This document shows, piece by piece, positions 34,301 through 51,118 of a stretch of 64,000 nucleotides of DNA. Below the pieces are notes generated by a model. The model worked only from the letters and a program-made list of their open reading frames with translations. It made no database searches and was not told where the DNA came from. Both the position numbers and the translations under genes were made by a program. Location of the stretch: assembly GCF_004104415.1 (NCBI RefSeq), contig NZ_CP034669.1; one strand, written 5' to 3'. Position 1 is the stretch's first letter. Each line of letters begins with the position of its first letter. This DNA is from Corallococcus coralloides. Its GTDB lineage: Bacteria > Myxococcota > Myxococcia > Myxococcales > Myxococcaceae.

Positions 34301-35708
34301 GCAGCACGTTGAGCTCACGGCTGCGGCCGATGATGTCGCCCCGGCCCTTGATGAAGAGGCCGCGGCGCGTCTCTCCCAACAGCCGGTACACCGGCACCGA
34401 GCGCGAGACGCCCTTGAGCTTCGCGTCCTCCACGAACTCGGTGGCGAAGCCGCCCTGCTGGGAGCGTGCCTGGGTGTTGGCGCACAGGTGCACGCCGTCC
34501 TGGCGTCCGCCGTGCGTCATCAGGCGCGCGGCCATGTTCACGACCTCGCCCAGCGCGGAGTAGCCCTTGCGCGTGGGCGAGCCCATGTCCCCGCAGTAGG
34601 CGTGGCCGGTGGCGATGCCGATCTGCAGCTCATCCAGGAAGGGGAACTGCTCCCGGGCCTTGAGCAGCTTGCAGGCCAGCCGGCACGCCAGCACCTCCTT
34701 GTTCTGCTGGGCGGTGGGCGCGCCGAACAGGACGTAGAGCACGTTGCCCTTGTCCGTGAAGTCCGTCATCAGCAGCACGCCGCCGTGGTGGGCGGACGCG
34801 CGCTGGACGTATTCGTAGTAGGTGTTGAGGTCGCGGGTGAAGGCGTCCGGATCCGTGTCCGCCCGCGCGTGGGTGAAGCGCACGAAGAAGCAGGTGACGT
34901 CGCGGAAGTCGCCCGCGAACTCCTGGTGCGCGGTGGTGATCTTCGTGAAGAGCACCGGGTGCAGCAGCAGCGCGCACCGGCCCACCAGCTCCGCCCCGCC
35001 CGTGGGCGCGGGCAGCGGGCGCTTCACCGACTCCACCGGCGCGTCGAGCGCCAGCCGGTGGTTGCCGCCCTCGCGCGGCTCGCCCTTGCGCGCGGCTTCC
35101 GGCAGCGCCGCCCAGGCGCGCGGGCTCAAGACGACCTCCGACACCGTGGCCTGCTTCTCCGCGCCCACCGCCTGCGCCAGCGGCTCGCCCACGAGCGCCG
35201 GGTGCATCCACAGGCCGGTGCCGCCCATCACGATGCGGGTGGCCTCCCCAAAGCCGATGCCGATGCGCGACGACACGCCGAAGCGCTGGCCCAACAGCTC
35301 CAGCCGGGCGAAGCGCGCGAGCCTGCGCTGCACGTGCAGCGCGCACACCGCCGCTCGCTGCACGACGTCGGTGTCCGGCTCGGCGGGCGCGGCCTCGAAG
35401 CACGCGAGGATGGAGTCGCCGGCGAACTGGTAGATGTCCCCGCCGTGGTCGCGGACCACGTCGATCATCTCCGTGTAGTAGTTCGTCAGCAGGCGCTGGA
35501 GCGCGTCGATGCCGCGCGGGCCCGCGCCGCTCAGCCCCACCACGATGGGCGTGAAGCCCGCGATGTCCAGCAGCAGGATGGCGCCCCGCACCCCTTCCGC
35601 GCGGGGCAGCGCGTCCGCCTCCTGGTCCCCAAGCCGCGCGAGGATGGCCGCCGGCAGGTACGGCGCCAGCATCGCGACAGCGGGATCAATGGGCTGCGTG
35701 GAGGGCAT
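31395..35708 (-). CDS. tandem adenylate/guanylate cyclase domains plus AAA ATPase plus TPR repeats
   Basis: Two class-III cyclase-like segments (DIAGFT...FAGDSILA and FVRFTHA...) are followed by the P-loop GEAGIGKSRLG. The C-terminus is TPR-like. Confidence 0.85.
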   Translation of the reverse strand: MPSTQPIDPAVAMLAPYLPAAILARLGDQEADALPRAEGVRGAILLLDIAGFTPIVVGLSGAGPRGIDALQRLLTNYYTEMIDVVRDHGGDIYQFAGDSILACFEAAPAEPDTDVVQRAAVCALHVQRRLARFARLELLGQRFGVSSRIGIGFGEATRIVMGGTGLWMHPALVGEPLAQAVGAEKQATVSEVVLSPRAWAALPEAARKGEPREGGNHRLALDAPVESVKRPLPAPTGGAELVGRCALLLHPVLFTKITTAHQEFAGDFRDVTCFFVRFTHARADTDPDAFTRDLNTYYEYVQRASAHHGGVLLMTDFTDKGNVLYVLFGAPTAQQNKEVLACRLACKLLKAREQFPFLDELQIGIATGHAYCGDMGSPTRKGYSALGEVVNMAARLMTHGGRQDGVHLCANTQARSQQGGFATEFVEDAKLKGVSRSVPVYRLLGETRRGLFIKGRGDIIGRSRELNVLHESLTASFAGQGRVCVVSGEAGIGKSRLGARVLEDAEEGGARALYGVCYSYEAFTPFFPWKEVLLQAFGLHDSDDTEAQLARLRQGLEGLEDVGPEWIPVVAGILGMSLEETSATAGMDARRKQQKVFQLVFQLLEKLSRAQPLLLFFEDLHWADYISLDLLQYLAVRVGSHRIMVLATMRPGDQLRGMRDLPEFVPLDLTSLDDEDTRALLRVHLRLSPPDVALEDRLLAKVQGNPFFIESIVEGLAEQGYLGLAEPGSTRMELKRGLQDLILPDSIQDVVLSRIDLLSETEKLVVKVASVIGRIFTLDAVAALVPTLGHGVLREAMDTLQRLGLILLETEEPYTCLFKHIVIRDVAYNTLLVSAREDLHRRLARYLEARANDNLAGSAGLLAFHFLAGNVEDKGLAYTLMAARSARAQYANDDALYHYNRGLELLGTVVPVDPEVTLLQTRRVMQELAETLLQAGHYANAILMFEQCLVDEEEPPRQAELHLGLGRAHQEKGESALATQHLEKSLVLRGRSLPGSLAALGLRTLANLLLRGLASLLPFILRPLPAARLGNYLQQLSTLNSLIRIYYFADITKLTWATLVSTNMAERSRSDYAMSLARGYYGTLLFGAGLLKRSRYHCEKALEYARRSKDPVAEGLALSRLGIQAFFANELERARAFQEEAVSTLRQVGERWERQTSLMMQATGEFLHSRFRTAVALYEQMGTIGVELNALMHQGWAHSWAPMCRYLMGEGDVGELCAELEQGLRISEEVADLANQCASLNHLANVTVREHQVEEAALVAVRCFKSIWSYQVLVPFLQVGLVDAAEAALFALEEGATVVPRKELLRIVRLSCIKARVIARLYPYLKGPALRVTARSLALRKGPKAAEPVFLEAIAVLEKSPNRWETGVAYFDAAVALPHRREDFLAKARAIFTEVEARAELRRMDRFQATLQAPLQAPPAEALVPPQASQVRDARVM

Positions 35709-35726: not shown

Positions 35727-36128
35727 TCAGGACAGGTTGGCGAAGCGCAGGTACAGGGCGCCCAGGCACATGGCGCCGTAGAGGGGGATTTCCGCCGTCT
35801 CCGGCCAGGGCTGCTGCTTCTTCACCGCGCCCCAGACGTGCACCGCCGTCATCAGGCCCCCAATGAGGCCGATGAGCTCGAAGATGACCAGGTGGCTCTT
35901 GGGGTCCGGGATGAACTGCACCACCGCGATGATGACGGACAGCGCCAGGCCGCCCAGGCAACGCGCGAAGTAGACCGTCAAATCATTGTTGCCCGTGGGC
36001 AGCTCCCACCCGAACCAACGCGCCCAACGCAGCGGGATGAACAGCAACGGCAGTGCGTAGACCAGCAGGAAGACCGAGGTGGAGACCGCGAGGAACCAGC
36101 TGGCCAGCGGATAGTCGGGGTTGATCAT
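35727..36128 (-). CDS. small integral membrane protein (4 TM), function unknown
   Basis: Hydrophobic segments are present with GC3 bias. Confidence 0.55.
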   Translation of the reverse strand: MINPDYPLASWFLAVSTSVFLLVYALPLLFIPLRWARWFGWELPTGNNDLTVYFARCLGGLALSVIIAVVQFIPDPKSHLVIFELIGLIGGLMTAVHVWGAVKKQQPWPETAEIPLYGAMCLGALYLRFANLS

Positions 36129-36259: not shown

Positions 36260-36790
36260 CTAGCGGGTGGCGGCCAGGAGGAACTCGGCCACCCGCTCCA
36301 GGGAGGTGGTGCGCTCGGCCTCCGCCGGGAAGCGCCGGAACACCTCCGGTGGCCCGTGCAGGATGAGCGGCTTGCCATAGCGCAAGGCCAGGACGGCCTC
36401 CGCCGCGGTGCCGGCGCCCCCGGGCAGCGCGACCAGCGCGTGCGGCGTCAGCACGTTGATGTGGTTGCGGCTCATGGGGTCCGTGCCCTGCTCCCCGCTG
36501 AGCGGCAGGTGCGTGTAGATGGGGATTTCGATGTCCGTGTTCGGGTAGCCGGGCCGGGGCTGGTAACGGCCATCCGCGCCCACGGTGCCGGGGATGATGC
36601 CGATGGCCGCCCCCCGCCGCCCCTCCACCTGGACGAAGGCCCCCGCCGCCGCGCTCATGACGCCGCCGCCCGCGCCGGTGAGCAGGTCGAACCCGGCCTC
36701 CGCGATCCACCGCGCCAGGGGGACGACCCACTCTTCGTGGGAGTGCGCCCCGGAGCCGAACACTCCGATGATGCGGCGGTATCTGCGCAT
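36260..36790 (-). CDS. LOG / TIGR00725-family Rossmann-fold nucleotide-binding protein
   Basis: An N-terminal VFGSG motif is present. A PGGxGT motif reads LPGGAGTAAEA. Confidence 0.65.
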   Translation of the reverse strand: MRRYRRIIGVFGSGAHSHEEWVVPLARWIAEAGFDLLTGAGGGVMSAAAGAFVQVEGRRGAAIGIIPGTVGADGRYQPRPGYPNTDIEIPIYTHLPLSGEQGTDPMSRNHINVLTPHALVALPGGAGTAAEAVLALRYGKPLILHGPPEVFRRFPAEAERTTSLERVAEFLLAATR

Positions 36791-37513: not shown

Positions 37514-40500
37514 TCAGGGCACGTCCAGCGCGACGCCCTGGCCCGGGACGGCCATCACCCAGCGGACGACGTCCGGCTTGCCGCCGCAGGTGACGCGCAC
37601 CTCGAACTCGCGCCCCGCGGGCATCTGGCTGGACAGGGGCGTCTGGCCCTCCAGCACCTGCGAGCCCAGCGCCACGCGGCAGCCCTGGGCACCGGTGACG
37701 CTGAGCGTGCCCCGGGCATCCGCCTGGGGCGGGGCGTCCGCGAGCGTGCGCAGGTCGATGTGCTCCGACCGCGGCACCTTGCCGAAGCGGTGCAGCTTGC
37801 CGTCCACGGCCGTGGAGATGAGCCAGCCGGCGGTGCCCTCGGGCAGGCCCTGGCTCGCCTCCAGCCGGACGCCGGATACGTAGACGCGCTCACCCTCCTG
37901 GGCGTTGCGCACCTCCACGCCGCCCTTGGGCAGCAGGAACACCAGCGCGAGCCCCGCGAGCACCAGGCCCACGCCGCCCACGATGAGCCCCTTGCGCTGG
38001 CCGGGCGTCAGGCCCTTCCCCGTCGCTCCGGCGGCGGGCGCGGAAGCCGCGGGGGAGACCGCGTGGACGGGGGCCGGCGGCGCGGCCACGGGAGCCGCCG
38101 GAGGCCGCGCGGGAGGAGCCACGGGGGCCGTGACTGGCGGTGGCGGCGGAGCGGCCACGTGCGGCGGCGGCGGCGGGTGTCCCCCATAGGCCGCGTGGGT
38201 GCCCGTCGGCGGCGGCGCATGGTGCCCCAGCGGCGGCGGCTGTGGGGCGCTTCCCTGCGGCGCGTGGGCGGCAGCGTATTGCGCGTGGGTCCCCCCATGC
38301 GACGCAGGGGGCGGCGGCGGGGCCGCGGTCAGGGGGGCGACGGAGGGCACCGACACCGACGGGCGCGCGGGCCCCTGCGGCGGGGGCCCCACGCGCGTGG
38401 GCACGTTGGCGGACGCCGCGGGGCGCACCGCGGTGGGCGGCGGCAACGGCGACGTGGGCGAAGCCGCGGCCGGGCGCGACGGACGGGGCGCGGCCACCGG
38501 AGGCGCGGCGGCCACGGGCGGCGCGTTGACGGAGACGACCTCGGTTCCGCGCTCGGCGGGCTCCGGCGGGGAGGCCACCGGGGGCGGCTCCATCCGGGGC
38601 ATGCTGCCGGAGCCGCCGCGCACGGGCGGACGGGACAGGTCCGACGGGGCCCGCATGTCGCTGCCGGAGCCCGTGCCCAGGTTGCGCGAGTGCGAGCCCG
38701 TCCCCGGCATCAGCGCCCGGGGGTTGGAGCCCGTCCCCGAGCCGGCGATGGACGACGGCGCGTACTCGGAGAGCCGGTCGCCCAGCGCCTCCTTGAAGAA
38801 CTGCGCCACCGACGCGGGCGACGAGGACAGCCGGTGGTGCGCGATGACGGCTTCGATCTCCTCGCGCATCGCCGCCGCGGAGGGCGTGCGCCGCGCGGGG
38901 TCCTTCACCAGCGCGCGGAGGATGAGGTCCGACACGTCCTGCGGGATGTGGGGCCGCAGCTGCGAGGGCACCGGCGCGGGCTCGCGCACGATGGCCGCGA
39001 GCGTGGCCGCGTCATGGTCCCGGCGGAACGGCAGCTGGCCGGTGAGCAGCTCGAAGAGCACCACGCCCAGCGCGAACACGTCGTTGCGCCAGTCCAGCGG
39101 GCGGCCGCTGGCGGCCTCCGGGGAGAGGTACGAAATCTTCCCCTTGATGACGCCCGCCTGCGTGTGCTCCTCGCCCTGCACCTTGGCGATGCCGAAGTCC
39201 GACAGCTTGATGGCGCCGTCCAGCGACACCAGCACGTTGTGGGGGCTGACGTCGCGGTGCACCACCGGGTGCGCCGTGCCGGAAGGGTCCACGTAGCTGT
39301 GCGCGTAGTGCAGGCCCGCGGCCACCTCCGCCACGATGCGCAGCGCGTGCTCCAGCGGCAGCGCCATGCCCTTGCGGCGCAGCTCCGTGAGCAGGCGCTT
39401 CAGGTCCGGGCCGCGCACGTACTCCATCAGGATGTACGCCACGCCGTCCGTCACGCCCACGTCGAAGGTCTGCACGACGTTGGGGTGCGTGAGGCGCGCG
39501 TTGGCGCGGGCCTCCGCGAAGAGCATGTCGACGAACTCAGGATTCTCAGCGAACTGCGCGAGAATCTTCTTCATCACCACGAACTTCTCGAAGCCCTTCA
39601 CGCCCTGCTGCTTGGCGAGGAACACCTCCGCCATGCCGCCCTGCCCCAGCCGGCGGATGATCTGCAACCGGGCGCCGCTGGTGTGCGTGTCCGTGGCTGA
39701 CGAGCCCCGGGCGCCGGGGTCCGTGTTGGTGGAGCCGAAGAGGTACTGGCTGAGCGCGCGCTGCTCCAGCGCCTCGATGTCCTCCAGCGGCTTGTCGGTG
39801 AGCGGCGTGCGCGCGAGCAGCCCCTGGAACTGCGCGAGCGCCGGAGCCCGGGCGCTGCCGCCGCAGACGGGGCACACGCGCTCCATGGTGCCCTTGGCGC
39901 GCAGCACCTCCAGGTACTCGGAGGTCTGGATGCGCTGGTGGGTGACCTGACCGCAGTTGCGGCAGTCACACGGCAGCCACAGCGTGGCCAGCTTCGCCGG
40001 CAGCGCCTTGGTGGACTTCGCCAGCACGGCCAGAAGCGGCGGCGGCACGCGGCAGAGCACCACCTGGGCGCCCTGCGACGCCACCTCCAGCACCTGTTCG
40101 ATGCGCGGCAGCGCTTCCTGCTCCACCACGCTCACGTGGCAGCAGTCGAACGCGACGCGCCCCTCCAGGCCGGACGCCAGCCGGCGCACGTTGAGGTCGG
40201 CCTTGAGCGTGCTGGCCAGGGTGATGAAGGTGATGTCGTCCTGGACGATCTTCAGGTGCGACGCGAGCTCGGACGGCTCAGACGGGATGCCGGAGCGCAG
40301 GTAGCGCAGCACCGCCGGATCCACCGCGGAGAACTGCTGGCGGCGCGCGAAGTCGAAGAACTCCGTGGGCTCGTCCGCGAACTCCAGCGGCTGGGCGCAC
40401 ACCGGGCACTGGTGCGGCGGGGCCCCGCCCTGCTCCAGCACCTTCGCCTCCTCCACCAGGCGGACCAGCCGCAGCCGGTCCTCCTTGCAGAAGCGGCACG

Positions 40501-40825
40501 TGTACGGCGCCAGCAGCGAGAGCACGCGCGCGACGCCCGCGAAGCCCTCCACCATGTTGAGCTGATCCACCACCACCGGCGGCGCGTTGACGACGTACAG
40601 CCCCGACACGCCCTGCGGCGGGTGGCCGGCGAATTCGATCCACCGGCGCACGCCGAAGGAGCTGATGCGCTCCACCAGGCCCAGGTCCACCACCACCAGG
40701 CCCTGGAGGCTCTTGGAGGCTGGCGAGAGGGGGAAGGTTTCGTCGATCACCCCGGCCACGCGCACGTGGGTCAGACTGCCCACGCGCAGGGAGGTGATGC
40801 TGGCATTGGAAGTTTGGCTCTCCAC
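37514..40825 (-). CDS. Hanks-type Ser/Thr protein kinase with two N-terminal STAS-like domains and zinc ribbons, a TM helix, and C-terminal PEGA-like extracytoplasmic repeats
   Basis: Kinase motifs are GQGGMAEV, VMKK, HRDVSPHNVL, DFGIAK and SPE. STAS-like segments read VRVAGVIDETF...LVVVDLGLVERISSFGVRRW. CxxC pairs and a single TM are present. Confidence 0.9.
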   Translation of the reverse strand: MESQTSNASITSLRVGSLTHVRVAGVIDETFPLSPASKSLQGLVVVDLGLVERISSFGVRRWIEFAGHPPQGVSGLYVVNAPPVVVDQLNMVEGFAGVARVLSLLAPYTCRFCKEDRLRLVRLVEEAKVLEQGGAPPHQCPVCAQPLEFADEPTEFFDFARRQQFSAVDPAVLRYLRSGIPSEPSELASHLKIVQDDITFITLASTLKADLNVRRLASGLEGRVAFDCCHVSVVEQEALPRIEQVLEVASQGAQVVLCRVPPPLLAVLAKSTKALPAKLATLWLPCDCRNCGQVTHQRIQTSEYLEVLRAKGTMERVCPVCGGSARAPALAQFQGLLARTPLTDKPLEDIEALEQRALSQYLFGSTNTDPGARGSSATDTHTSGARLQIIRRLGQGGMAEVFLAKQQGVKGFEKFVVMKKILAQFAENPEFVDMLFAEARANARLTHPNVVQTFDVGVTDGVAYILMEYVRGPDLKRLLTELRRKGMALPLEHALRIVAEVAAGLHYAHSYVDPSGTAHPVVHRDVSPHNVLVSLDGAIKLSDFGIAKVQGEEHTQAGVIKGKISYLSPEAASGRPLDWRNDVFALGVVLFELLTGQLPFRRDHDAATLAAIVREPAPVPSQLRPHIPQDVSDLILRALVKDPARRTPSAAAMREEIEAVIAHHRLSSSPASVAQFFKEALGDRLSEYAPSSIAGSGTGSNPRALMPGTGSHSRNLGTGSGSDMRAPSDLSRPPVRGGSGSMPRMEPPPVASPPEPAERGTEVVSVNAPPVAAAPPVAAPRPSRPAAASPTSPLPPPTAVRPAASANVPTRVGPPPQGPARPSVSVPSVAPLTAAPPPPPASHGGTHAQYAAAHAPQGSAPQPPPLGHHAPPPTGTHAAYGGHPPPPPHVAAPPPPPVTAPVAPPARPPAAPVAAPPAPVHAVSPAASAPAAGATGKGLTPGQRKGLIVGGVGLVLAGLALVFLLPKGGVEVRNAQEGERVYVSGVRLEASQGLPEGTAGWLISTAVDGKLHRFGKVPRSEHIDLRTLADAPPQADARGTLSVTGAQGCRVALGSQVLEGQTPLSSQMPAGREFEVRVTCGGKPDVVRWVMAVPGQGVALDVP

Positions 40826-40829
40826 CCGC

Positions 40830-41672
40830 CTACCCTCGTTCCAGACTGAACAGCAGCGACTTGGGCTGCGCGGCCCGGCGGCGAGCGTCGCCCAGGTCCA
40901 CCCCGCAGGCGAACTGCGTGCGCTTTCCCGGAGTCACCCGCACCGCCACCACGTCGCTGTGCTCCAGGATGCGCCGCAGACCCAGGCCCGCGCCACCACC
41001 CGAAGCATCCACCTGCGCCTTCTCACCCCACGCCTTGACCACCCGCACCAACGGTGACACCGACAGGCGGCCGAAGCGGTCCGTCGCCTCCAGCCACGCC
41101 CTGCCGTCCGCCACCGCCCAGGACACCAGGCAGCGATCCTCCTCCGCCACCGACTGCACCTGGCCGCGCCGGTGGGCGTACTTCGGCTCGCCGCTCCCGT
41201 CCACTGGCGCGTCGAGCAGGGCGTTCACACCCATCTCATGGACGACATCCGCCACCCGGCTGGCCGCGCTCTTGGAGCCGCCAGCCTGGAGGACGGCCTC
41301 GGCCGCCCGCTCGCCCAGGGCCCTCACCTCCGCCACGCTGCCCAGCCACGCCACGGACGTGGCGGCCTCCTGGGGGATCAGGGGCTCGCCGCGGAGCAGC
41401 GCGCCGAGCAGCCGCGCCTCCCAGGCGGACGGCTGGCCGCCCTCGCGGGTGGCCAGGAGCAGCGCCGGGGAACGGCGTTCCAGGAGCGCGGCGTGGGCGG
41501 GGGTGAACCGCCCGTCGAACAGCACCAGCTGCGGCGCTGCGTCGTCACCGTGCCCCAACAACAGGCCGTCCCGGGCCAGCACTCCGGAGGCCTTCTCCAG
41601 CGCCTCCGGCGTGAGCGTCGTGTCCGGCGTCAACTTCAGGGGAGCATCCTTCACGGCGGCGACGGTATCCAA
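40830..41672 (-). CDS. RsbW/SpoIIAB-like GHKL ATPase (putative anti-sigma/partner-switching kinase) with unknown N-terminal domain
   Basis: The C-terminal half carries an N-box-like EMGVNALLDA and G-box-like DGSGEP and GAGLGL motifs. It ends 4 nt before the kinase start. Confidence 0.55.
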   Translation of the reverse strand: MDTVAAVKDAPLKLTPDTTLTPEALEKASGVLARDGLLLGHGDDAAPQLVLFDGRFTPAHAALLERRSPALLLATREGGQPSAWEARLLGALLRGEPLIPQEAATSVAWLGSVAEVRALGERAAEAVLQAGGSKSAASRVADVVHEMGVNALLDAPVDGSGEPKYAHRRGQVQSVAEEDRCLVSWAVADGRAWLEATDRFGRLSVSPLVRVVKAWGEKAQVDASGGGAGLGLRRILEHSDVVAVRVTPGKRTQFACGVDLGDARRRAAQPKSLLFSLERG

Positions 41673-41680
41673 ACAGGGCC

Positions 41681-44299
41681 CTAATAATGGAGCCGGACTT
41701 CGGTGAAGACGCCCAGCGGCGGGGCGGGGAAGCCGTGGGACTCTTCGTACTTGGCGTTGAAGAGGTTGGTCCCCAACAGCGACACCGCCACGCGCTCGTG
41801 GACGTTGAAGCCCACACGCGCGGTCGCGGTGATGTAGCTGGGCAGCTTCACGCGGGTGGTGGTGCCGGCGTTCTCGTCCACCACGAAGCCCGGATCATAC
41901 CGGGCGCCCACGAACAGGCCGTAGAGCTCCACGAAGGCGAACTTGCCGATGTTGGTGCGGCCGCGCAGGTAGACGCGGTGGGTGGGCGCGTAGTCCAGCG
42001 GGTAGCCGGCCCCGCCGCCCACCGGCAGCGCCTGGGCGTCCAGGAACTGGTAGGCCACGTCGAAGGACGAGTTGATGGACGGCACCTGCGCCGCGGCTTC
42101 CGCCTCGAAGCCCGCCACGCGCGCGTCACCCAGGTTCTTGAACTGGGACGTGGAGCCGAAGAGGAGCTCCTGATTGATGAAGTTGCGGGCGCGGTTGTAG
42201 AAGCCCGTGCCCGTCAGGCGCACCCTGCGGTCCAGCGGCCAGAAGTCCACCGCCGCCTCCACCGTGTCCAGCGTCTCCGCGCGCAGGCCCGGGTTGCCCA
42301 GGAGCGTCGCGGCGTACATCTGCTGGTTGATGGCCAGCTCCGCCAGCGTGGGCGCGCGGAAGGCGCGGCCGTAGTTGGTGCGCAGCGTGAGCAGCTCCGG
42401 GATGGCGTGGAACACGACGCTGGCGCGCGGGGACACCTGATCCGTCTTCGCCTCCCAGACCTTGGAGGGGATCTGGTAGTTGTCGTAGCGGGCGCCCGCG
42501 CCCACCACCAGCCGCTCCGTGATGCGGTACTCGGCGTCCACGAAGCCGCCCAGGATGGTCTGCTTCGTGTCGTCCAGGGTCAGGCCGGGCAGGATGTTCT
42601 GGTTGTTCACCTGGTCGGCCTTCACGTCGCCGCCGACGGTGACGGAGAGCTTGTCCAGGGAGAACAGCGCGCGCGCCTCACCGCCGATGCGGCTGCGCTT
42701 GCCCAGCGTGTCCTCCAGCGCGCCGGTGACTTCGTTCTCCAGCGTCACGTTGCGGCGCTTGAAGAACGTGTAGGCCTGGGCGAACACGCGCACGTGGTCC
42801 GTCACCTGCTGATCCAGCTGCAGGGCGGCGTTCAGGTTCTGGACGTGCTCGTTGTCCTGCGCGGTGTAGTGGCAGCGGCCGCAGTTGCCCACGGTGGAGA
42901 TGTTCTGGCCGCCGGGCCGGCCGATGTTGCCGTCCGTGAAGTCCGCGTCCAGCGCGAGGGGGCCCACGCGGACCTTGCCGTTCACCTGGTGGACCAGCGA
43001 GTCCTCGTTGGTGTCCGTCTGGTTCAGCTGCGGGTTGTTGAAGAGCTGCGGGCCGTCCGAGCCGAAGCCGTAGTAGCCGAGCAGCGCCTCCACCGGGCCG
43101 CCGCGGCCGGCGACGTTGGTCTGCAGGCGCCAGGTCTTGTCCTGGCCCGCGAGGATGCGCGCGTCGGCGCCCACGTTCTGGCCCTTGGCGATGAGGTCCG
43201 CGGGCTGGCGCTCGATGATGTTGATGACGCCGCTGAAGGCGTTGGAGCCGTAGAGCGAGGAGCCCGGGCCGCGAATCACCTCCACCTGCTTCAGGTTGGT
43301 GAGCGGCGTCGTCTCATCCGCGTAGAACTGGCCCGTCCACGGGTCCGTCAGCGGACGGCCGTCCTTGAGGAGCAGCAGGCGGTTGGACAGGTAGTTGGAG
43401 CCCAGGCCGCGCGCGCTCACCGCCGCCTTGCGCATGGAGCCCCGGCGGCACTCCATGCCGGGGAAGTACTGGATGGCCTCGCAGAGCGAGAACTGGCCGG
43501 TGCCTTCCAGTTCCTCCGCGGGAATCCAGGACACCGTGAGGGGCACGTCGGAGATGCGCTGGCTGCGCTTGGACGCCGTGGTGACCACGGCCTCGCTCAG
43601 CGCCATGTTGATGTTCTGCTCCAGGTCGTCGCCACCGACCAGGTCCGGGCCGTCCAGGCCGGAGAGGCTGGAGGGCGGCGGCAGCGCGCGGTCCGAGGCG
43701 GGCTCCGTGAAGGGCGCGCGGTCCGGGACGTTGTCCGCCGTGCGCGGCTGCGACGACGGCAGCAGCGCGCCGGTCCCCAGCGCCGGGGCGGGCGGCGGGT
43801 TGGACGGGATGTCCGACATCAGCGGCCCGTCATACGGCGACGGCGACGGCGAGGCGGGCGAGGCCACGGGCAACGGATCCGCGACGGACGGACCCGGGCC
43901 GGCCATGGGGGCGGGAGGCGCGGGCTGCGGCTCGGTGGCGAGCGCCGGCTCCTGCGGCGAGACGGGCTCGTCCACGGGAGCGGGCTCCACGTCCACCGGC
44001 GGGGGCGGCGGCTTCGCGCCCCGGCGCGTCTTCGCCGTGCGCGGAGGCTTCGTGCCCTTGGCGCCCGGGGTGCCCTTGGCGCCCGGCGTGGTCGCCGCGC
44101 GCTTGCGGGTGGCCTTGGTCCGCGTCTTGGGAGCGGGCTCCTGGGCCTCCTGGGCCTGGGCCGTCTCCACCGTGAAAAGGGACAGTGCGCAGACCACCAG
44201 GGTGAGGCACGCGCGCGCGCCCAGCCGACCGGCAAACCCCTTCACCGCGTTGGTGCGCGATCCACCGTACTCAGTCGAGTCCATCGTTCTCAATTCCAC
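41681..44299 (-). CDS. TonB-dependent receptor with long Pro/Ala-rich N-terminal extension
   Basis: A signal peptide ends in AQA. The plug region reads DVPLTV...RGLGSN...IRGPGSSLYGSNAFSGVINII. The beta-barrel ends in a C-terminal Tyr. Confidence 0.85.
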   Translation of the reverse strand: MELRTMDSTEYGGSRTNAVKGFAGRLGARACLTLVVCALSLFTVETAQAQEAQEPAPKTRTKATRKRAATTPGAKGTPGAKGTKPPRTAKTRRGAKPPPPPVDVEPAPVDEPVSPQEPALATEPQPAPPAPMAGPGPSVADPLPVASPASPSPSPYDGPLMSDIPSNPPPAPALGTGALLPSSQPRTADNVPDRAPFTEPASDRALPPPSSLSGLDGPDLVGGDDLEQNINMALSEAVVTTASKRSQRISDVPLTVSWIPAEELEGTGQFSLCEAIQYFPGMECRRGSMRKAAVSARGLGSNYLSNRLLLLKDGRPLTDPWTGQFYADETTPLTNLKQVEVIRGPGSSLYGSNAFSGVINIIERQPADLIAKGQNVGADARILAGQDKTWRLQTNVAGRGGPVEALLGYYGFGSDGPQLFNNPQLNQTDTNEDSLVHQVNGKVRVGPLALDADFTDGNIGRPGGQNISTVGNCGRCHYTAQDNEHVQNLNAALQLDQQVTDHVRVFAQAYTFFKRRNVTLENEVTGALEDTLGKRSRIGGEARALFSLDKLSVTVGGDVKADQVNNQNILPGLTLDDTKQTILGGFVDAEYRITERLVVGAGARYDNYQIPSKVWEAKTDQVSPRASVVFHAIPELLTLRTNYGRAFRAPTLAELAINQQMYAATLLGNPGLRAETLDTVEAAVDFWPLDRRVRLTGTGFYNRARNFINQELLFGSTSQFKNLGDARVAGFEAEAAAQVPSINSSFDVAYQFLDAQALPVGGGAGYPLDYAPTHRVYLRGRTNIGKFAFVELYGLFVGARYDPGFVVDENAGTTTRVKLPSYITATARVGFNVHERVAVSLLGTNLFNAKYEESHGFPAPPLGVFTEVRLHY

Positions 44300-44520
44300 G
44301 AAGGGGAAGCAGGAATGTCCGCGGTCGTTGCGCCGGGAACCAGAGCCGGTGTGACTGGCAATCGTTCTCAGGGGCGAGTTTCCACCCCTGAACGGTGGCG
44401 TTCCGCTCGACTTCTCAAATTACCGCAATAACTCGCCTTAGGCCAAGTCATGGCTGTCGATCCCGGTGAAACATGCGCACGGCGGCGGGGGCGCCGTGCG
44501 CGGATCAGCCCACGGCGCAA

Positions 44521-45447
44521 TCAGTCATCGGGCTGTTCGGCGGAGACGGCCAGGTCGTCCGCGAACGGCGGCAGGGCAGGACCCAGCGACTCGGATTGGA
44601 CGAGCACGGGCGTCTCCACCCGCAGGTCGGGGGTGTCCGCGAAGACGGGCTGGCGGCGCGGGGGGCCCTGGGTGACGAGCTTGCGGAAGTCCTCGAACTC
44701 GCGGCCCTGGATGCGGGCGAAGGCGTCGAACGGGGCGACCGCACCCACGGAGGACAGGGACTGGGACAACGCGTCTCCCCCGCCCTTCAGGTCCACCAGC
44801 ACGGCGCCCGGCACCCGGCTGCTCTTGAAGAGCACCCGCATGTCCCTGGGCACATGCGCCACCGGCACGAGCGCGGCCTCCGCGCCCCTGGCCTCCAGCA
44901 TCTTCACCGCCGACTCCACGTTGGGCACCGGCACCAGCTTGAAGTGCTTCTGGGCATCCAGGTCGCCGCCCAGCACGACGTGGGAGACGAACTTGGGGTC
45001 CGCGGAGCCCGCGCCCTTGACCAGCGCCATGCGCTTGCCGGCGAGGTCCTTCACGGTGCCCTTCTGGAGGGAGATGATGGCCCAGCGCTGCTGCGTCTCA
45101 CCGGCGCGCGGCGCGTACGCCACCGGCTGCGCCTTGGAGCCCAGCTGCACCGCGGCCCAGCCGTCCACCACGGCGAAGTCGATCTGCCCCTCCCCCACCG
45201 CCTTGGAGAAGTCCTCGTAGCGGCCGAAGCTCTTGGCGCCCACGGGGCGTCCCAGGCGGGCCTCCAGCTTCTGGGCGAGCGCCTCCGCGTACTGGAAGCG
45301 CTCCTGGCCATCCGACAGCGTGGTGGCGAGGAACACGCCCAGCGTGGCCTTCTTCGGCGCGGCGGACGCGGGGCTGGCAACGGAAACGGCGAACAGCGCG
45401 GCGGCGAGCAGGAGGCTCCCCCGCGCGACAAGGGATGGCGTCTTCAC
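44521..45447 (-). CDS. PhnD/SsuA-like periplasmic substrate-binding protein (orphan)
   Basis: A signal peptide ends in ASAA. It has a type-2 periplasmic-binding-protein fold (TIGR01098-like). No permease or ATPase is nearby. Confidence 0.65.
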   Translation of the reverse strand: MKTPSLVARGSLLLAAALFAVSVASPASAAPKKATLGVFLATTLSDGQERFQYAEALAQKLEARLGRPVGAKSFGRYEDFSKAVGEGQIDFAVVDGWAAVQLGSKAQPVAYAPRAGETQQRWAIISLQKGTVKDLAGKRMALVKGAGSADPKFVSHVVLGGDLDAQKHFKLVPVPNVESAVKMLEARGAEAALVPVAHVPRDMRVLFKSSRVPGAVLVDLKGGGDALSQSLSSVGAVAPFDAFARIQGREFEDFRKLVTQGPPRRQPVFADTPDLRVETPVLVQSESLGPALPPFADDLAVSAEQPDD

Positions 45448-47957
45448 GGCGTCTCCTCCGCGACCCCGGTGGCCGGCGTGGCGCCCTGCGCGTCACCCAG
45501 TCCATAGAGGCCCTGCAAGCGGTCCTTCCATTCCCGCACCTGGGCGGCGCGGGGGGCCGCGCCGGAGGCCAGGTAGCGGCGCCAGGCGTCCACGGCCTCG
45601 GCGGGTTCATGCCGGCGCTCCTGCGCGTCGATGCCCAGGTTGAGCGACGCGACAGGCACGGCGGTCTCCAAACGCTTCCACGTCGCGAGCGCCGAAGCGC
45701 TGTCGCCCTTGCGCCAGTCCACGCACGCCAGGTTGTGCTGCACCAGCGCGTCGTCCGGCGTCGCGGCGAGCGCGGCCTTCAGCGCCTTCTGCGACGCCTT
45801 CATGTTGCCGGAGGCGTACGCGAGCGCCGCCTCACGCCGCAGCAGCGCGCCGGTGAGGTTGCCCATCCACTTCGGCTGCCCGGGCATGGGCTTCCTCTGG
45901 GCGGCGGTGAGCAGCCTGCGCGAGGGCGCCACCTTGCCCTGGCGGTAGAGCACCCACGCGTCCGCGAGCGCGCGCGTGTTGGGCCACGCCCACTCCGGCG
46001 TGGGCGTGAGGGAGCGCTTGAGGCCCGCGGTGGCCTCCGCGAACCGTCCCTCCTCCGCGCGCGTGAGCGCCCGGGCGAAGGCGGCCAGCTTCGCCAGGTC
46101 CGCGCGCTTGCCGGTGCCCAGGCGGTCCACCGCGTCCAGGTCCCGGTTCGCCGCGACGGCGTCGCCTGTCTCCAGCTTCGCCAGGGCCCGGCGCACCAGC
46201 ACGCGAGGCAGGTTCGCCTCCGCCACCTTCGCGGCCGTCTTGGAGGGCCCCGCGTCCGTCAGCCGCTGCACGGCGGCGTCCACCTGGCCCAGCTCCACCT
46301 CCGCGAGCGCGGCGCCCGCGGACGCCTCCGCGCGCTGATCCGGCTCCTGCGTGGCCTCACCGGACTGATTGAACGCGGCGAGCGCTCCTTGCGCGTCGCC
46401 ACCGCCCAGGCGGGCGTAGCCGAGCAGCAGGTGCTCGCGCCAGGTCACGCCCGGCAGCGTCACCGCGCCCTCCAGCACCTTGCGGGCCTCCGCGAACTGG
46501 CGGTGGTCCAGGAGCGCCGCGCCCAGCCGGCGGGCCATGGGCACGGAGCGGTCCAGGTCATACGCGCGGCGCAGGTCGCGCACGGCGTCTTCCAGGCGCT
46601 GGGTGCCGGCGCGCTCTCTCGCGCGGTGGGCCAGGGCCCGGGCCAGCCACTGCTTCGCGCCGGGGTGGCCGGGTTCGACCTGGAGCGCGCTGCCGTAGTC
46701 CTCGATGGCCTGATCCCACTGGCCGGTGGCGAAGTGATCCGCGCCCAGCAGCATGTGGCCCAGCGCCTGGCGCGGGGCCATCTCCACCACGCGCCGGTGC
46801 ACCTCCACCGCGCGCTGGTAGCGGCCGGCGCGGCGGTTGACGGAGCCCAGCGTCGCCCACAGCTCCAGGCTGCCGCCGCCCGACTTCACGGCGGACTCCA
46901 GGAACTGGATGGCCTCTTCGTGGCGCGCCTGCGCCTGGAGCGCCTTGCCCACGGCGATCTGCCCCATCAGCAGGCCCGGCTGCAGCTCCAGCACCTTGCG
47001 GAACTCCGCCTCCGCCTGCGCGGGCTGCTTCTGCGCGAGCCGCACGTCACCCAGCAAGAGGTGCGAGGCGGGCGTGGAGCCCAGCTTCATCAGGGCGGTG
47101 GCCTGCAGGTCCGCGCGCGGCACGTCGCCCGCGGACAGGTACAGGCGCGCGAGGCGCTCCTTCGGCTCCGCCACCTGCGGGAACTTCGTCACCAGCCGCT
47201 CCAGCAGCGCGCGGGACTCCGGCGCGTGGCCTTCCATCTCCAGCACGGCCGCGAGGCCGATCTGCGCGGTCGCGGACTCGGCCCGGCCGGCCTGCGCCTT
47301 CTCGAACGAGGCGCGCGCGGCACCAGCGTCCCGGCGGATGAGGTGCGCCTTGCCCAGGAGCTCGTGGATCTGGAAGTCGTTGCCCGCGAGCCTCTCCGGG
47401 CGCAGCACCAGGTAGCGCTGCAGCCGCGTCACGGCCCGGTTCCCGTCCTGGACGTACAGGTAGTAGCTGGCCAGGTAGTAGTGGACGATGAGGTGGTCCG
47501 GCTGATCCGCGGCGGCCACCTGCTCCAGCACCGGCACCGCCTCCTGGAAGCGGCGCAGCTTGAAGTACGCGGTGCCCAGCGGGTACGCGAGCGACAGGTC
47601 CCGCGGGTTCTGCGCGAACACCGGCGCAAGGCGCGTGGCCGTGCGCTGGAAGTCCTGGAGCGCGTTGGCGGCGCTGCCCAGGCCCGCGGCGGCGAACACG
47701 GACTGCGGCTCCTGCGTGAGCGCCTGCTCGAAGAGCTGGAGCGCCTTGGTGAATTTCTCCTGCGCCTCCTTCCTGTCGCCCTTGGCGAGGGCGGCGTTGG
47801 CGGACACGAGGGTCTGCTCGCCCTGCTCCGTCATGCGCTGCGCCTCGGTGGCGGGCGGTGGGCGGAACTGGGCGAGCGCCGCCGGCGGGCCGGCCAGGGT
47901 GGCCAGCAGGGCGAGCGCGGTGCAGACGCGGCGCGGGGAACGGTTGAATGGGCGCAT
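45444..47957 (-). CDS. periplasmic TPR-repeat protein
   Basis: The start MRPFNRSP...ALAQ gives a signal peptide. About 14 TPR-like helical repeats follow. The upstream Arg-rich extension of the ORF was rejected. Confidence 0.75.
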   Translation of the reverse strand: MRPFNRSPRRVCTALALLATLAGPPAALAQFRPPPATEAQRMTEQGEQTLVSANAALAKGDRKEAQEKFTKALQLFEQALTQEPQSVFAAAGLGSAANALQDFQRTATRLAPVFAQNPRDLSLAYPLGTAYFKLRRFQEAVPVLEQVAAADQPDHLIVHYYLASYYLYVQDGNRAVTRLQRYLVLRPERLAGNDFQIHELLGKAHLIRRDAGAARASFEKAQAGRAESATAQIGLAAVLEMEGHAPESRALLERLVTKFPQVAEPKERLARLYLSAGDVPRADLQATALMKLGSTPASHLLLGDVRLAQKQPAQAEAEFRKVLELQPGLLMGQIAVGKALQAQARHEEAIQFLESAVKSGGGSLELWATLGSVNRRAGRYQRAVEVHRRVVEMAPRQALGHMLLGADHFATGQWDQAIEDYGSALQVEPGHPGAKQWLARALAHRARERAGTQRLEDAVRDLRRAYDLDRSVPMARRLGAALLDHRQFAEARKVLEGAVTLPGVTWREHLLLGYARLGGGDAQGALAAFNQSGEATQEPDQRAEASAGAALAEVELGQVDAAVQRLTDAGPSKTAAKVAEANLPRVLVRRALAKLETGDAVAANRDLDAVDRLGTGKRADLAKLAAFARALTRAEEGRFAEATAGLKRSLTPTPEWAWPNTRALADAWVLYRQGKVAPSRRLLTAAQRKPMPGQPKWMGNLTGALLRREAALAYASGNMKASQKALKAALAATPDDALVQHNLACVDWRKGDSASALATWKRLETAVPVASLNLGIDAQERRHEPAEAVDAWRRYLASGAAPRAAQVREWKDRLQGLYGLGDAQGATPATGVAEETP

Positions 47958-47965
47958 GCGGTTCG

Positions 47966-49765
47966 TCACGGAGAGGGGGCGGGGCTGAATTCGGCGACGA
48001 TGACGGTGATGTCGTCGCGCTGGGGCTGGCCGGCGCTGTACGCGCGCACGTCCGCGAGGAGCGCGTCGCGAAGGGCATCGGCGGGGAGGTGGGCGTGGGC
48101 CTGGAGCGCGGCGGCCAGCCGCTGCGTGCCGTAGAGCCGGTTGGCGCCGTCGCGCGCCTCGGTGAGGCCGTCCGTGTACCAGACGATGATGTCGCCGGGG
48201 CTCAGCTGCGCCTGGCGCGACGTGAACTGCGAGGCCACGTTCGCGCCCAGCAGCGGACCGCGCGCCGGCAGCGACGCCATCTGCCGCGTGTTCCGGTTGT
48301 AGATGGCCGCGGCAGGGTGGGCGCCCGCCGCGTAGTCGATGCTGCCGCTGTACACGTCGATGACCGCGAGCGCGCTGGACATCTGGTGCTCGCCGCGGCC
48401 CACGTTGGCCAGCGTCACGTTGAGCGCGGTGATCAGCATCTGCGCGTGCACCTGCGACGGCTCGCGCAGCGTCATGGCGGAGGCGAAGCCGCTGGTGGCG
48501 CTGGTGGCGACCAGCGACGTGGACAGGCCGTGGCCCGTCACGTCTCCAATGCCAATCACCACGCGCCGGTCGTCCAGCGCGGCGCGGAACCACCAGTCGC
48601 CGCCGCACGCGTCCGCGGGAACCACCAGTCCAGCGAGCCGCAGCGGGCCCACCGTCACGGCCTCGCGGCCCGGCAGGAGCGTCTCCTGCACCGTGCGCGC
48701 GAGCGACACCTCGCGCTCCAGCTGCGCCTTGGCGCGCACGTCCTCCAGCAGGACCTTGATGCGCTCCGCCATGTGGTTGAACACCACGCCCAGCGTCGTC
48801 ACCTCGCGGCCCGCGCCCGGCGCCGTGCCCGCGCGCGCGCCCAGGTCACCGGCGGCCAGCTGCATCACGCGGTGGGTGAGCACGCCCAGCGGCTTGGTGA
48901 TGCGGCGGCTCTGGAACGCGGCCAGCACGCCGGCCAGCACCACGAAGCCCAGGCCCAGCCCCACGATGCGCAGCGTGTTGGCGCGCACGGAGGCGCGGTT
49001 GTTCTCCTCCAGCTCGTGCAGCTGCTTCTGCAGGTCCTCCAGCGAGTAGCTGATGACCACCACGCCCTTGCCGGACTGCGAGCCGTAGTCGAGCGGCTCC
49101 TGGAACTCGAAGACGGGCTGGCCGTTGAAGAAGGCGCTGGCCCAGCGGCGCTCCGCGGTGCGGCCTCCGGAGGACTCGCCCAGCCTGGCGGCCGGGTCGC
49201 TGTCCGCGACGAGCTGCCCGTCCGCGTCGAACATCTGCACGCGCAGGATGTTGTGGTTGTCCGCGATGATGGAGCGCGCCACTTCCGTGAGGAACGCGTA
49301 GTTGTTGTCACGCAGGCTGGTGGCGGAGGTGAGCGCCAGCGTGTGGCTCACCGTCTGGCCCAGCTCGCGCGCCTGGGACTGGAGCCGCTGCGTGAAGCGG
49401 TCCGACGTCGCGGTGAGCTGCGCCTCCGTCGTCTTCGCGGACAGCGCGGCCAGGAGGCCCACGATCACGATGACCAGCGCGCCCGTGGTGAGCAGCAGCA
49501 GCTGATCCAACCGCAGCCCGCGGATGGCCGCCACGTTGGGCAGCTCGCCGGCCTCCATGGGCGCGATGACCGTGCTCGTGGGCTCCGCGGCCGGCAGCCC
49601 CAGCGCACCCGTCAGCCGGGTGGCCGTGTGCTCACCGCGCAGGGCGGTGAGCTCCCGGGAATGGGTGCCGGTGTACTCCGGAGGAGGAGGCGGGGTGCCG
49701 GGCGCCGCATCGGACGCATCAGATGATTCGGGCACGGGGTCGAGGCGCGTGTTCGTACGGGACAA
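47966..49765 (-). CDS. membrane-bound PP2C-type Ser phosphatase (SpoIIE/RsbU family) with periplasmic sensor domain and HAMP
   Basis: Two TM helices flank a ~200-aa sensor domain. A HAMP segment is present. The PP2C motifs are GGDWW, GDVTGHG and DGLTEA. Confidence 0.85.
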   Translation of the reverse strand: MSRTNTRLDPVPESSDASDAAPGTPPPPPEYTGTHSRELTALRGEHTATRLTGALGLPAAEPTSTVIAPMEAGELPNVAAIRGLRLDQLLLLTTGALVIVIVGLLAALSAKTTEAQLTATSDRFTQRLQSQARELGQTVSHTLALTSATSLRDNNYAFLTEVARSIIADNHNILRVQMFDADGQLVADSDPAARLGESSGGRTAERRWASAFFNGQPVFEFQEPLDYGSQSGKGVVVISYSLEDLQKQLHELEENNRASVRANTLRIVGLGLGFVVLAGVLAAFQSRRITKPLGVLTHRVMQLAAGDLGARAGTAPGAGREVTTLGVVFNHMAERIKVLLEDVRAKAQLEREVSLARTVQETLLPGREAVTVGPLRLAGLVVPADACGGDWWFRAALDDRRVVIGIGDVTGHGLSTSLVATSATSGFASAMTLREPSQVHAQMLITALNVTLANVGRGEHQMSSALAVIDVYSGSIDYAAGAHPAAAIYNRNTRQMASLPARGPLLGANVASQFTSRQAQLSPGDIIVWYTDGLTEARDGANRLYGTQRLAAALQAHAHLPADALRDALLADVRAYSAGQPQRDDITVIVAEFSPAPSP

Positions 49766-50110
49766 AGGCAGACCTGAGGGAGCCCGCGTCGGAAGTACGC
49801 GGTCGGGGCGGAGCGGACTCTATCTCACTTCCTGATTGACGCGAGGAGTCCACCTGTCGGGCGATTCCTCGCGGCCGCCCCCTCACCCGGCCCCCCAACA
49901 GCCGTGCGATCAGCCCGGACCCGGAGCGTCCGCCCCCCTGAAGAAGCAGCACGTCACGGGGGCATGGATGAGTTCCGCTCATTGCCGCGTCGCGCCACCC
50001 GGGGGCCGAAAGGTGATGGCGAACACCCGTGACATCAGGGTCCTTGAGTCGGGAGGCCGCGTTCGGAGTATAGGGGCGTCCCTTTCTTTCCCCTTCGAGG
50101 TCCTCCGCCC

Positions 50111-51118
50111 GTGTCACGGCCCCGGTTGATCAAAGAAAACTCCGCGCCGCTCTCCCTGCCCCGAGAGCAGCTCATCCGCATCCATGACCTGATGGTGAAG
50201 GCGCGCGTCCTGGAGGAGCGCCTGATCCAGATGTACAAGCAGGGTCACGGCTACTTCTGGATCGGCGGTCCCGGTGAGGAGGCGTTCAACGTCCCCCTGG
50301 GCATGCTGATGAAGGTCGGCGAGGGCCCGGCCTACGACTACCTGCACGCGCACTACCGCCAGTCCGCGACGCTGCTCGCCATGGGCGAGGAGCCCATCGG
50401 GGCGCTGCGGCAGATGAAGAACACGGCCACGGACCCCTACTCCGGCGGCCGCAACTTCGCGGGCCACTTCAGCCGGCGCTCGAAGAACATCGCGCCCGTC
50501 ACCTCCCCCATCGAGGTGCAGTACGCCGTCGCGCCGGGCACGGCCATGGCCCAGAAGCGCCACGGCGGCGACGGCATCACCATCGTCACCGGCGGCGACG
50601 CGGGCACGGCCGAGGGCGACTTCGCCAGCTGCCTCATCTGGAGCAGCCGCCCGGCCAACCCGCTGCCCATCCTGATCGTCGTCACCAACAACAAGTGGGG
50701 CATCAGCACCACTTCGGACGGCCAGCACGGCGAGACGAACATCAGCGACCGCGCGCGCGCCTTCAACATCCAGGCGAAGACCATCAACGGCAATGATCCG
50801 GTGGAGTCCTACCAGGAGCTCCAGGCCGCGATGGAGTACGTGCGCAAGGAGCGCAAGCCCTTCTTCATCGAGGCGCGCGTGTCGCGCCTGTACGGGCACT
50901 CGTCCGCGTCCGGCGCCAACTTCGTGAACGAGGAGCAGGACTGCCTGCGCCTCTTCGAAGCGCGGCTGGAGCAGGAGGGCGTCCTCAGCCGCGAGCAGAT
51001 GGACGAGGCGCGCAACCGGTACTCGGAGGAGCTGGCCGCCGCGGCGCGCACCGTGCGTGACGAGCCGCAGCCCTCTGGCGACTCCATCTGGGAACACATC
51101 TACGCGGAGAAGAAATAA
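50111..51118 (+). CDS. 2-oxo acid dehydrogenase E1 component alpha subunit (TPP-dependent; branched-chain type)
   Basis: The TPP-binding motif reads GDGxxxEG...NN (GGDAGTAEGDF...VTNNKW). It uses a GTG start. Confidence 0.9.
   Translation: MSRPRLIKENSAPLSLPREQLIRIHDLMVKARVLEERLIQMYKQGHGYFWIGGPGEEAFNVPLGMLMKVGEGPAYDYLHAHYRQSATLLAMGEEPIGALRQMKNTATDPYSGGRNFAGHFSRRSKNIAPVTSPIEVQYAVAPGTAMAQKRHGGDGITIVTGGDAGTAEGDFASCLIWSSRPANPLPILIVVTNNKWGISTTSDGQHGETNISDRARAFNIQAKTINGNDPVESYQELQAAMEYVRKERKPFFIEARVSRLYGHSSASGANFVNEEQDCLRLFEARLEQEGVLSREQMDEARNRYSEELAAAARTVRDEPQPSGDSIWEHIYAEKK

Follow-up and report, generated by a model that had tools for sequence, protein, structure and literature searches.

A candidate partner-switch-type phospho-switch with a STAS element built into a membrane Hanks-type kinase, encoded by a conserved six-gene cluster of Corallococcus coralloides

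The present analysis concerns a cluster of six genes, and the candidate signaling system that they encode, in a 64,000-nucleotide (nt) stretch of the genome of the myxobacterium Corallococcus coralloides (assembly GCF_004104415.1, contig NZ_CP034669.1), hereafter the window, whose GC content of approximately 70% is myxobacterial. By a check of the gene map, the six genes are co-directional, lie on the minus strand, and span positions 37514–49765; along that strand they encode a PP2C phosphatase, a tetratricopeptide repeat (TPR) protein, a PhnD-like binding protein, a TonB-dependent receptor (TBDR), a 280-amino acid (aa) protein, and a 1103-aa kinase. A first-pass annotation, made from the sequence of the window, had counted seven genes while naming six, and the gene map gives six; its spacings, all of 8 nt or less bar one of 221 nt, match the map, in which, in gene order, the first two genes are 8 nt apart, the next pair overlaps by 4 nt, and the remaining gaps measure 221, 8, and 4 nt. 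Its calls of a PP2C with SpoIIE and HAMP domains, a TPR protein, a PhnD-like protein, a TonB receptor, and a Hanks kinase were all borne out by Pfam. Cluster features given below lie on the minus strand unless stated otherwise.

The first gene (47966–49765) encodes a 599-aa membrane PP2C phosphatase whose orthologue MXAN_4562 was noted in 2010 as the sole SpoIIE-like phosphatase of Myxococcus xanthus (PMC2887360). Hydropathy places transmembrane (TM) helices at aa 84–113 and aa 263–286 on either side of a periplasmic Cache-like sensor (approximately aa 114–262), and Pfam places a HAMP domain at aa 286–336 (E 3.8e-9) and a PP2C domain of the SpoIIE/RsbU type at aa 398–593 (PF07228, E 1e-38; 133.7 bits, cut-off 25), in which the metal-binding motifs GDVTGHG, TDG, and DDIT are intact. 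The periplasmic domain, of about 150 aa, is matched by the Cache families of Pfam weakly and below threshold.

The second gene (45444–47957), which starts at an ATG at 47957, 8 nt past the PP2C stop, encodes a secreted TPR protein of 837 aa that is matched by many TPR families in Pfam (best E 5.8e-31), and it keeps company with the PP2C gene across the loci of relatives. The third (44521–45447) encodes a PhnD-like periplasmic solute-binding protein of 308 aa (Phosphonate-bd, PF12974, E 5.6e-11, 42.7 bits against a cut-off of 27), homologues of which adjoin the same PP2C in remote loci. Sec-type signal peptides, read from the sequence, begin both of these proteins and the TBDR. No ABC permease or ATPase gene was present in any locus gene table examined (the window, M. 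xanthus, and the rearranged and remote loci), which upholds the first-pass description of the PhnD-like protein as an orphan without an ABC partner.

The fourth gene (41681–44299, 872 aa from a GTG) encodes the TBDR, which consists of a signal peptide, a Pro/Ala-rich extension of about 185 aa, a Plug domain (E 2.6e-18), and a 22-strand TonB barrel (E 4.1e-44); Plug and barrel were its only Pfam matches, with no match to the signaling (STN) domain, and no equivalog-level match was found in NCBIfam. The extension (approximately aa 40–225), a low-complexity segment with 44 Pro among its 185 aa that is reduced in length in distant orthologues, sits where transducers carry the signaling domain. In an alignment of 13 loci, the gap between the PhnD-like and TBDR genes has diverged overall, and two blocks within it that together form a promoter-like element, TTGGCC (44446–44441) and, 18 nt further on, TAATTT (44422–44417), are kept from Corallococcus to Hyalangium. 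A ribosome-binding site and an ATG at 44284 are also conserved across genera in this alignment, which suggests this ATG, and not the GTG at 44299, as the probable TBDR start, in which case the gap would measure 236 nt instead of 221 nt. The element is a possible internal promoter for the TBDR, 280-aa protein, and kinase genes, and a division into two sub-operons is plausible and would agree with the layout of the rearranged loci described below. A consensus promoter scan of the cluster strand called nothing, this element included; a terminator scan found none on that strand or in the gap, its lone terminator-like match falling within the PP2C gene on the other strand; and Rfam gave no family or riboswitch in the cluster region.

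The fifth gene (40830–41672; orthologue MXAN_4558) encodes the 280-aa protein, which is 96% identical to a protein of Corallococcus sp. CA054B and 95% identical to one of C. coralloides. This cytoplasmic protein comprises a small alpha/beta N-terminal domain (aa ~10–110, 41343–41645) and a GHKL domain (aa ~113–280, 40833–41336). Its identity as a GHKL serine-kinase protein of the RsbW/SpoIIAB type is supported by the predicted fold and by transitive Pfam matches, on which the assignment rests because sequence searches against the PDB and SpoIIAB came back empty, with phmmer and a family profile finding nothing relevant to the family among PDB sequences; a separate AF2 model built on the single sequence failed (pLDDT 43). 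Among 41 aligned orthologues, an N-box (H-E146-x3-N150-A-x2-D-A-P), a G1 motif (D198-x-F-G201), a G2 motif (G225-GGAGLG-231), and a C-terminal RRR...KS motif (aa 264–272) are invariant, and the constancy of the Mg/ATP-binding Asn, the Asp of G1, and the glycine loop of G2 speaks for a family that still binds ATP and is still catalytic. The extra N-terminal domain and the RRR...KS motif are found in neither SpoIIAB nor RsbW; the domain has a beta-alpha fold that was confidently modelled and bears weak similarities only, to BRCT, receiver, and Rossmann domains.

The last gene (37514–40825; orthologue MXAN_4557) encodes a membrane Hanks-type Ser/Thr kinase of 1103 aa, built from two consecutive units of a STAS domain plus a zinc ribbon, a kinase domain, a 270-aa Pro/Ala-rich linker, a single TM helix (aa 945–972, 37910–37993, by hydropathy), and an extracytoplasmic tail of about 130 aa. 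The catalytic domain (aa 388–653, 38867–39664; Pfam Pkinase, E 1.2e-41) has the motifs of a Hanks kinase intact (G-loop GQGGMAEV, Lys motif VVMKK, HRDVSPHN, DFG, and SPE), and the kinase is apparently active. The linker (approximately aa 670–940) is of low complexity, with 68 Pro in 270 aa, and the tail (aa 973–1103, 37514–37909), which has no Pfam match, looks by eye like one or two PEGA-type beta domains.

At the N-terminus of the kinase, STAS domain 1 (aa ~10–105, 40511–40798), recognized by family-level matches in Pfam and in PDB profile searches, is followed by zinc ribbon 1 (aa 106–160, 40346–40510; APYxCxxC...CPxC...EFxDxPxxFF), which has four invariant Cys and weak matches to zinc-ribbon families in Pfam; STAS domain 2 (aa ~186–285, 39971–40270), recognized by hhalign to domain 1 and by Pfam across members, is followed by zinc ribbon 2 (aa 286–335, 39821–39970; CRNC...CPVC). 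The CxxC...CxxC ribbon after each STAS domain had been overlooked in the first-pass annotation, and C2H2 zinc-finger matches to the PYxCxxC ribbon were set aside as pattern matches rather than homology. The STAS domains are homologous to each other (hhalign 95.8%, E 8e-9), as are the ribbons (96.3%, E 2e-9). Across 20 members, domain 1 was matched by STAS in 11 and by STAS_2 in 8, and domain 2 by STAS_2 in 11 and by STAS in 6, with essentially no other Pfam family in either case. A phmmer search of the kinase N-terminus against the PDB returned no match, and narrow profiles (A2, A3, and A4) gave sub-significant STAS matches only; significance was reached just with the broad profile A6, which represents a 49-member STAS-zinc-ribbon family and which matched the SpoIIAA-like structure 4hyl (E 5.4e-5), the anti-sigma antagonist TM1442 (E 2.4e-4), and also RsbV, SpoIIAA, and RsfB.

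The motif R-I-S-S56-F-G-V-R of domain 1 (S56 codon at 40658–40660) is invariant, and its Ser is present in 49 of 49 family members (family motif V-R-R-I-N-S-x-G-V-R-E-W), where it aligns to S58 of SpoIIAA (hhalign E 1.7e-4) and also, in the STAS domain of prestin, to the 'DS' motif. S56 is a candidate phospho-acceptor, and at the level of the family domain 1 has the features expected of a STAS antagonist domain with a conserved, putatively phosphorylatable Ser. Domain 2 keeps the acidic residue, the Ser being replaced by Q, P, or L, and it is therefore predicted to be non-phosphorylatable; its best PDB matches are MlaB and RsbS (E 0.13–0.5). Fusions of STAS proteins to eukaryotic-like kinases have been noted in Sorangium (PMC2887360).

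A tblastn census covered 66 loci, and the six-gene order proved common to the Myxococcaceae and Archangiaceae, the full succession from PP2C to kinase being found in Corallococcus, Myxococcus, Pyxidicoccus, Archangium, Hyalangium, Vitiosangium, and Citreicoccus; the M. xanthus orthologues, MXAN_4562 to MXAN_4557, stand in the same order. In every locus with downstream DNA, the STAS-kinase gene comes directly after the GHKL gene. In deeper relatives, at 42–50% identity, the genes are rearranged and their linkage is kept: the PP2C-TPR-PhnD trio is divergent from TBDR-GHKL-kinase in two loci (L004 and L063) and from GHKL-kinase, with no TBDR, in another (L003). In loci that are more remote still, L067 combines the order TPR-PhnD-PP2C with a GHKL relative and a stand-alone STAS-zinc-ribbon gene (hhalign 98.8%); in L068, a GHKL relative follows a kinase whose STAS-zinc-ribbon units (99%) are C-terminal; L073 has a STAS-zinc-ribbon gene followed by a GHKL gene; and L074 has the trio followed by a STAS-zinc-ribbon gene. 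A 549-aa neighbor in L067 was considered and found not to be a STAS protein. The arrangement, repeated in the same order across approximately 40 genomes from several genera and still linked after rearrangement, is far beyond chance, and the conservation of gene neighborhood that the first-pass annotation had named as a check is borne out.

A profile search with STAS domain 1 and its ribbon led to a family of stand-alone proteins of 150–190 aa, which several sources name 'anti-anti-sigma regulatory factor', and at least 569 STAS-zinc-ribbon relatives were present in a metagenome scan. Of the 38 loci in a census limited to lengths of 6 kb or more, 34 of them from the metagenome scan and 4 obtained before it, this PP2C occurs in 17, a PhnD-like protein in 14, a GHKL protein in 13, and a Hanks kinase in 7, including one kinase with a PEGA tail and one with an AAA_16 domain. 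From this census and the rearranged loci, the core module is therefore the PP2C, TPR, and PhnD-like proteins together with the GHKL protein and the STAS-zinc-ribbon unit; the Hanks kinase is a recurrent partner of this core, as a fusion in Myxococcaceae. Further arrangements were observed among these loci. In L085, the gene for a PEGA-domain Hanks kinase adjoins a stand-alone STAS-zinc-ribbon gene, and two STAS-zinc-ribbon genes often flank the PP2C-TPR-PhnD trio in the metagenomic loci, one for a stand-alone form of approximately 170 aa and one for a form of approximately 300 aa (for example L074:1044-2000, and similarly in L088, L096, L097, L103, L109, L123, and L132), the longer form having a C-terminal half of about 160 aa without annotation. 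Two long open reading frames (L075:7254-10199 and L110:228-2174), of 650–980 aa from stop to stop, contain a STAS-zinc-ribbon unit and no Pfam domain, which suggests that more novel output domains are fused to this switch element.

We favor, with moderate confidence, the reading that the cluster encodes a partner-switch-type phospho-switch in which the STAS element has been built into a membrane Hanks kinase. The first-pass annotation had proposed that the three partner-switch components, a PP2C, a GHKL kinase, and a STAS domain, are all present and that the STAS domain is fused to a eukaryotic-like kinase in place of sigma-factor control; Pfam, the predicted structure, and the family profiles support the former, and the cluster, which has no sigma gene, agrees with the latter. 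The kinase fused to the STAS domains is the only obvious output. Under this reading, the GHKL protein would bind STAS domain 1 and phosphorylate S56, the PP2C would strip the phosphate when its periplasmic sensor changes state, and the phosphorylation and occupancy state of domain 1 would determine how active the fused Hanks kinase is or how it assembles, and that kinase would in turn phosphorylate downstream targets; domain 2 may serve as a non-phosphorylatable docking copy. The switch might run in either direction, turning the kinase on or off. Upstream, and with less support, the PhnD-like protein may report a periplasmic ligand to the PP2C sensor, as AioX does to AioS, the TPR protein may act as a scaffold for this periplasmic input, and in Myxococcaceae the co-transcribed TBDR may carry the ligand across the outer membrane.

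Several observations weigh against this reading. The window GHKL protein has no match in Pfam or NCBIfam, and its family profile misses SpoIIAB, both in the PDB profile search and by hhalign to a SpoIIAB sequence, such that the link of the family to SpoIIAB consists of predicted structure and transitive matches. The window kinase matches STAS_2 below threshold (E 0.002 at full length and 1e-4 for the N-terminus alone). Thus, the RsbW-like kinase and the two N-terminal STAS domains of the first-pass annotation fall short of HMM thresholds on the window proteins themselves, and they stand on predicted structure and transitive homology in the first case and on family-level profile matches in the second. 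The reading assigns no role to the zinc ribbons or to the N-terminal domain of the GHKL protein. No sigma factor or other third partner for the GHKL protein to hold was found in the window cluster or in the M. xanthus locus; the gene tables contain a single sigma gene, of the housekeeping sigma-70 type, which neighbors dnaG and rpsU in L003, some 9 kb away from the GHKL gene. The promoter-like element suggests two transcription units, and the TBDR, missing from L003, L067, and most metagenomic loci, is not part of the core and is an accessory, lineage-specific addition. All of the mechanistic steps, moreover, rest on computation. As for the envelope nutrient-sensing relay that had been proposed, the periplasmic input arm is supported, since the PP2C, TPR, and PhnD-like genes stay with the STAS and GHKL genes in remote lineages; the outer-membrane part is the weakest link because the TBDR is missing in several relatives, and 'nutrient sensing' is speculation.

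The identity of the enzyme that phosphorylates the STAS Ser invites another reading, which we consider unlikely, though the best placed of the rivals: the Hanks kinase itself may phosphorylate this residue, in cis or in trans, with the GHKL protein as a non-catalytic partner ('anti-kinase' or adaptor) and the PP2C resetting the switch. The catalytic motifs of the kinase are complete and it is joined covalently to the STAS units, stand-alone STAS-zinc-ribbon genes repeatedly have Hanks kinases as neighbors, and SpoIIAB-type proteins are also stoichiometric binders. However, the invariant Mg/ATP Asn, G1 Asp, and G2 loop of the GHKL family point to retained catalysis, and many pairs of GHKL and STAS-zinc-ribbon genes have no Hanks kinase within 8 kb.

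A low probability likewise attaches to the view that the cluster is two adjacent and independent units, one for envelope uptake or assembly (the TPR protein, the PhnD-like protein, and the TBDR, with a transporter encoded elsewhere) and one for cytoplasmic signaling. PhnD-family proteins are usually transport components, the 221-nt gap contains a conserved promoter-like element, and the TBDR is dispensable in relatives; yet in every rearranged or remote locus the TPR and PhnD-like genes stay with the PP2C gene, not with the TBDR, and they adjoin STAS-zinc-ribbon genes and no ABC genes. It is about as improbable that the STAS-zinc-ribbon units are not phospho-regulated at all and instead are modules for ligand, metal, or redox sensing or for localization (cf. 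SLC26 and MlaB), while the PP2C opposes the Hanks kinase on its substrates. The lack of the Ser in STAS domain 2, whose nearest structures by sequence are those of MlaB and RsbS, the potential of the four-Cys ribbons to bind metal, and the frequency with which bacterial PP2Cs reverse Hanks kinases (PMC2887360) would fit such a role, whereas the Ser of domain 1, invariant in the family and positioned exactly at the SpoIIAA phospho-site, the phosphatase being of the SpoIIE/RsbU rather than the PF00481 type, and the co-occurrence of a dedicated RsbW-fold protein with STAS-zinc-ribbon units argue for phospho-regulation. Two further candidates were rejected: a phosphonate uptake operon, given that ABC and C-P lyase genes are absent, and a TonB-dependent transducer/ECF system, for which the STN domain, FecR, and the ECF sigma are all lacking, with neither FecR nor ECF genes among the window neighbors or in the gene tables of the M. 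xanthus locus.

Among characterized systems, the cluster is like the SpoIIE/SpoIIAB/SpoIIAA and RsbU/RsbW/RsbV modules in that a SpoIIE-type PP2C, a GHKL protein, and a Ser-bearing STAS domain are encoded together. Unlike in those modules, there is no sigma factor; there are two STAS copies, each with a zinc ribbon after it, and the pair forms one protein with a Hanks kinase; an alpha/beta domain is added at the N-terminus of the GHKL protein, which has diverged beyond the reach of HATPase_c_2; and the phosphatase is a periplasm-sensing membrane protein with TPR and PhnD-like companions. SiaABCD, All4160/HenR, and CapK/CapS are precedents for outputs other than sigma factors. In SiaABCD of Pseudomonas aeruginosa, the output is a diguanylate cyclase activated by the separate protein SiaC, whereas the present cluster has no GGDEF gene, and SiaA (NF038263), the top NCBIfam match of its PP2C, reaches 87 bits, far short of the 700-bit cut-off; the cluster is not a SiaABCD system. 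In Anabaena, the STAS Ser of the STAS-glycosyltransferase All4160 is phosphorylated by serine kinases and the phosphatase HenR acts against it genetically (PMC13555669); HenR/Alr3423/All4160 shares with our cluster the fusion of STAS straight to the regulated enzyme (PMC13555669) and differs in its sugar transferase output and other phosphatase input, as opposed to zinc ribbons and a binding-protein arm. The GHKL kinase CapK phosphorylates a conserved STAS Ser of CapS, a STAS-wHTH repressor (PMC13373217), and here too a GHKL protein is paired with a STAS protein whose second domain is the output (PMC13373217); the differences are a DNA-binding output, a DNA-damage trigger, and the absence of PP2C or envelope components in CapK/CapS.

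On the input side, AioX is a PF12974 binding protein without a transporter that signals to the membrane sensor AioS (PMC8050422), and the cluster resembles AioX/AioS/AioR at the level of the genes, with a transporter-less PhnD-family protein encoded beside a Cache-like membrane sensor; the sensor is a histidine kinase in that system and a PP2C in this one, where a large TPR protein is also always present. The resemblance to FecA/FecR/FecI is confined to an outer-membrane TonB receptor encoded with an envelope-spanning signaling system, in that the N-terminal signaling domain, the FecR-type anti-sigma, and the ECF sigma are lacking and the TBDR is not conserved with the module outside the Myxococcaceae and Archangiaceae.

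On its 5' side, the cluster is flanked by a divergent E1 dehydrogenase gene (50111–51118, plus strand); in M. xanthus an M50 peptidase gene lies between the two, and that gene is absent from this interval of the window (49766–51118). The 3' neighbors are unrelated to the cluster. An analysis of GC at third codon positions (GC3) favors two co-directional genes 3' of the kinase gene, one (36260–36790) for a 176-aa protein that is LOG/TIGR00725-like by eye only and one (35727–36128) for a 133-aa membrane protein; the approximately 720 nt between 36790 and the kinase stop are of ambiguous coding status by this analysis. Further on, also on the minus strand (31395–35708), is a gene for a STAND-type signaling protein of 1437 aa that combines TPR repeats with AAA_16 ATPase and adenylate/guanylate cyclase domains. 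The position 3' of the kinase is occupied in M. xanthus by lanthipeptide-dehydratase-like genes.

In the open-access literature searched, there was no functional study of MXAN_4557–4562 or of the module, MXAN_4559 and MXAN_4561 appeared as list entries only, and the STAS-zinc-ribbon family was not described. More tentatively than for the cluster itself, we propose a widespread trans-envelope system, mainly of Myxococcota and related uncultured bacteria, in which PhnD-like and TPR proteins might control the PP2C, fed by the TBDR in Myxococcaceae, and in which the PP2C and a new RsbW-like family might toggle a new STAS-zinc-ribbon family that would directly gate Hanks kinases; this wider proposal, if true, would provide the first defined upstream switch joining GHKL partner-switch chemistry to eukaryotic-like kinase signaling.

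The analysis defines two families without annotation in current HMM libraries, the N-terminal domain plus RsbW-like GHKL family, with approximately 2000 representatives at 50% identity, and the STAS plus zinc-ribbon family, found in hundreds of metagenomic loci, and it adds the PP2C to the short list of sensors seemingly served by signaling-only binding proteins. With the favored reading, partner-switching, so far linked to sigma factors, cyclases, and transferases, would also reach eukaryotic-like kinases. M. xanthus has about 100 Hanks kinases, most of which, to our knowledge, have no known signal and no known mode of regulation, and for one of them the cluster offers a concrete, testable upstream switch.

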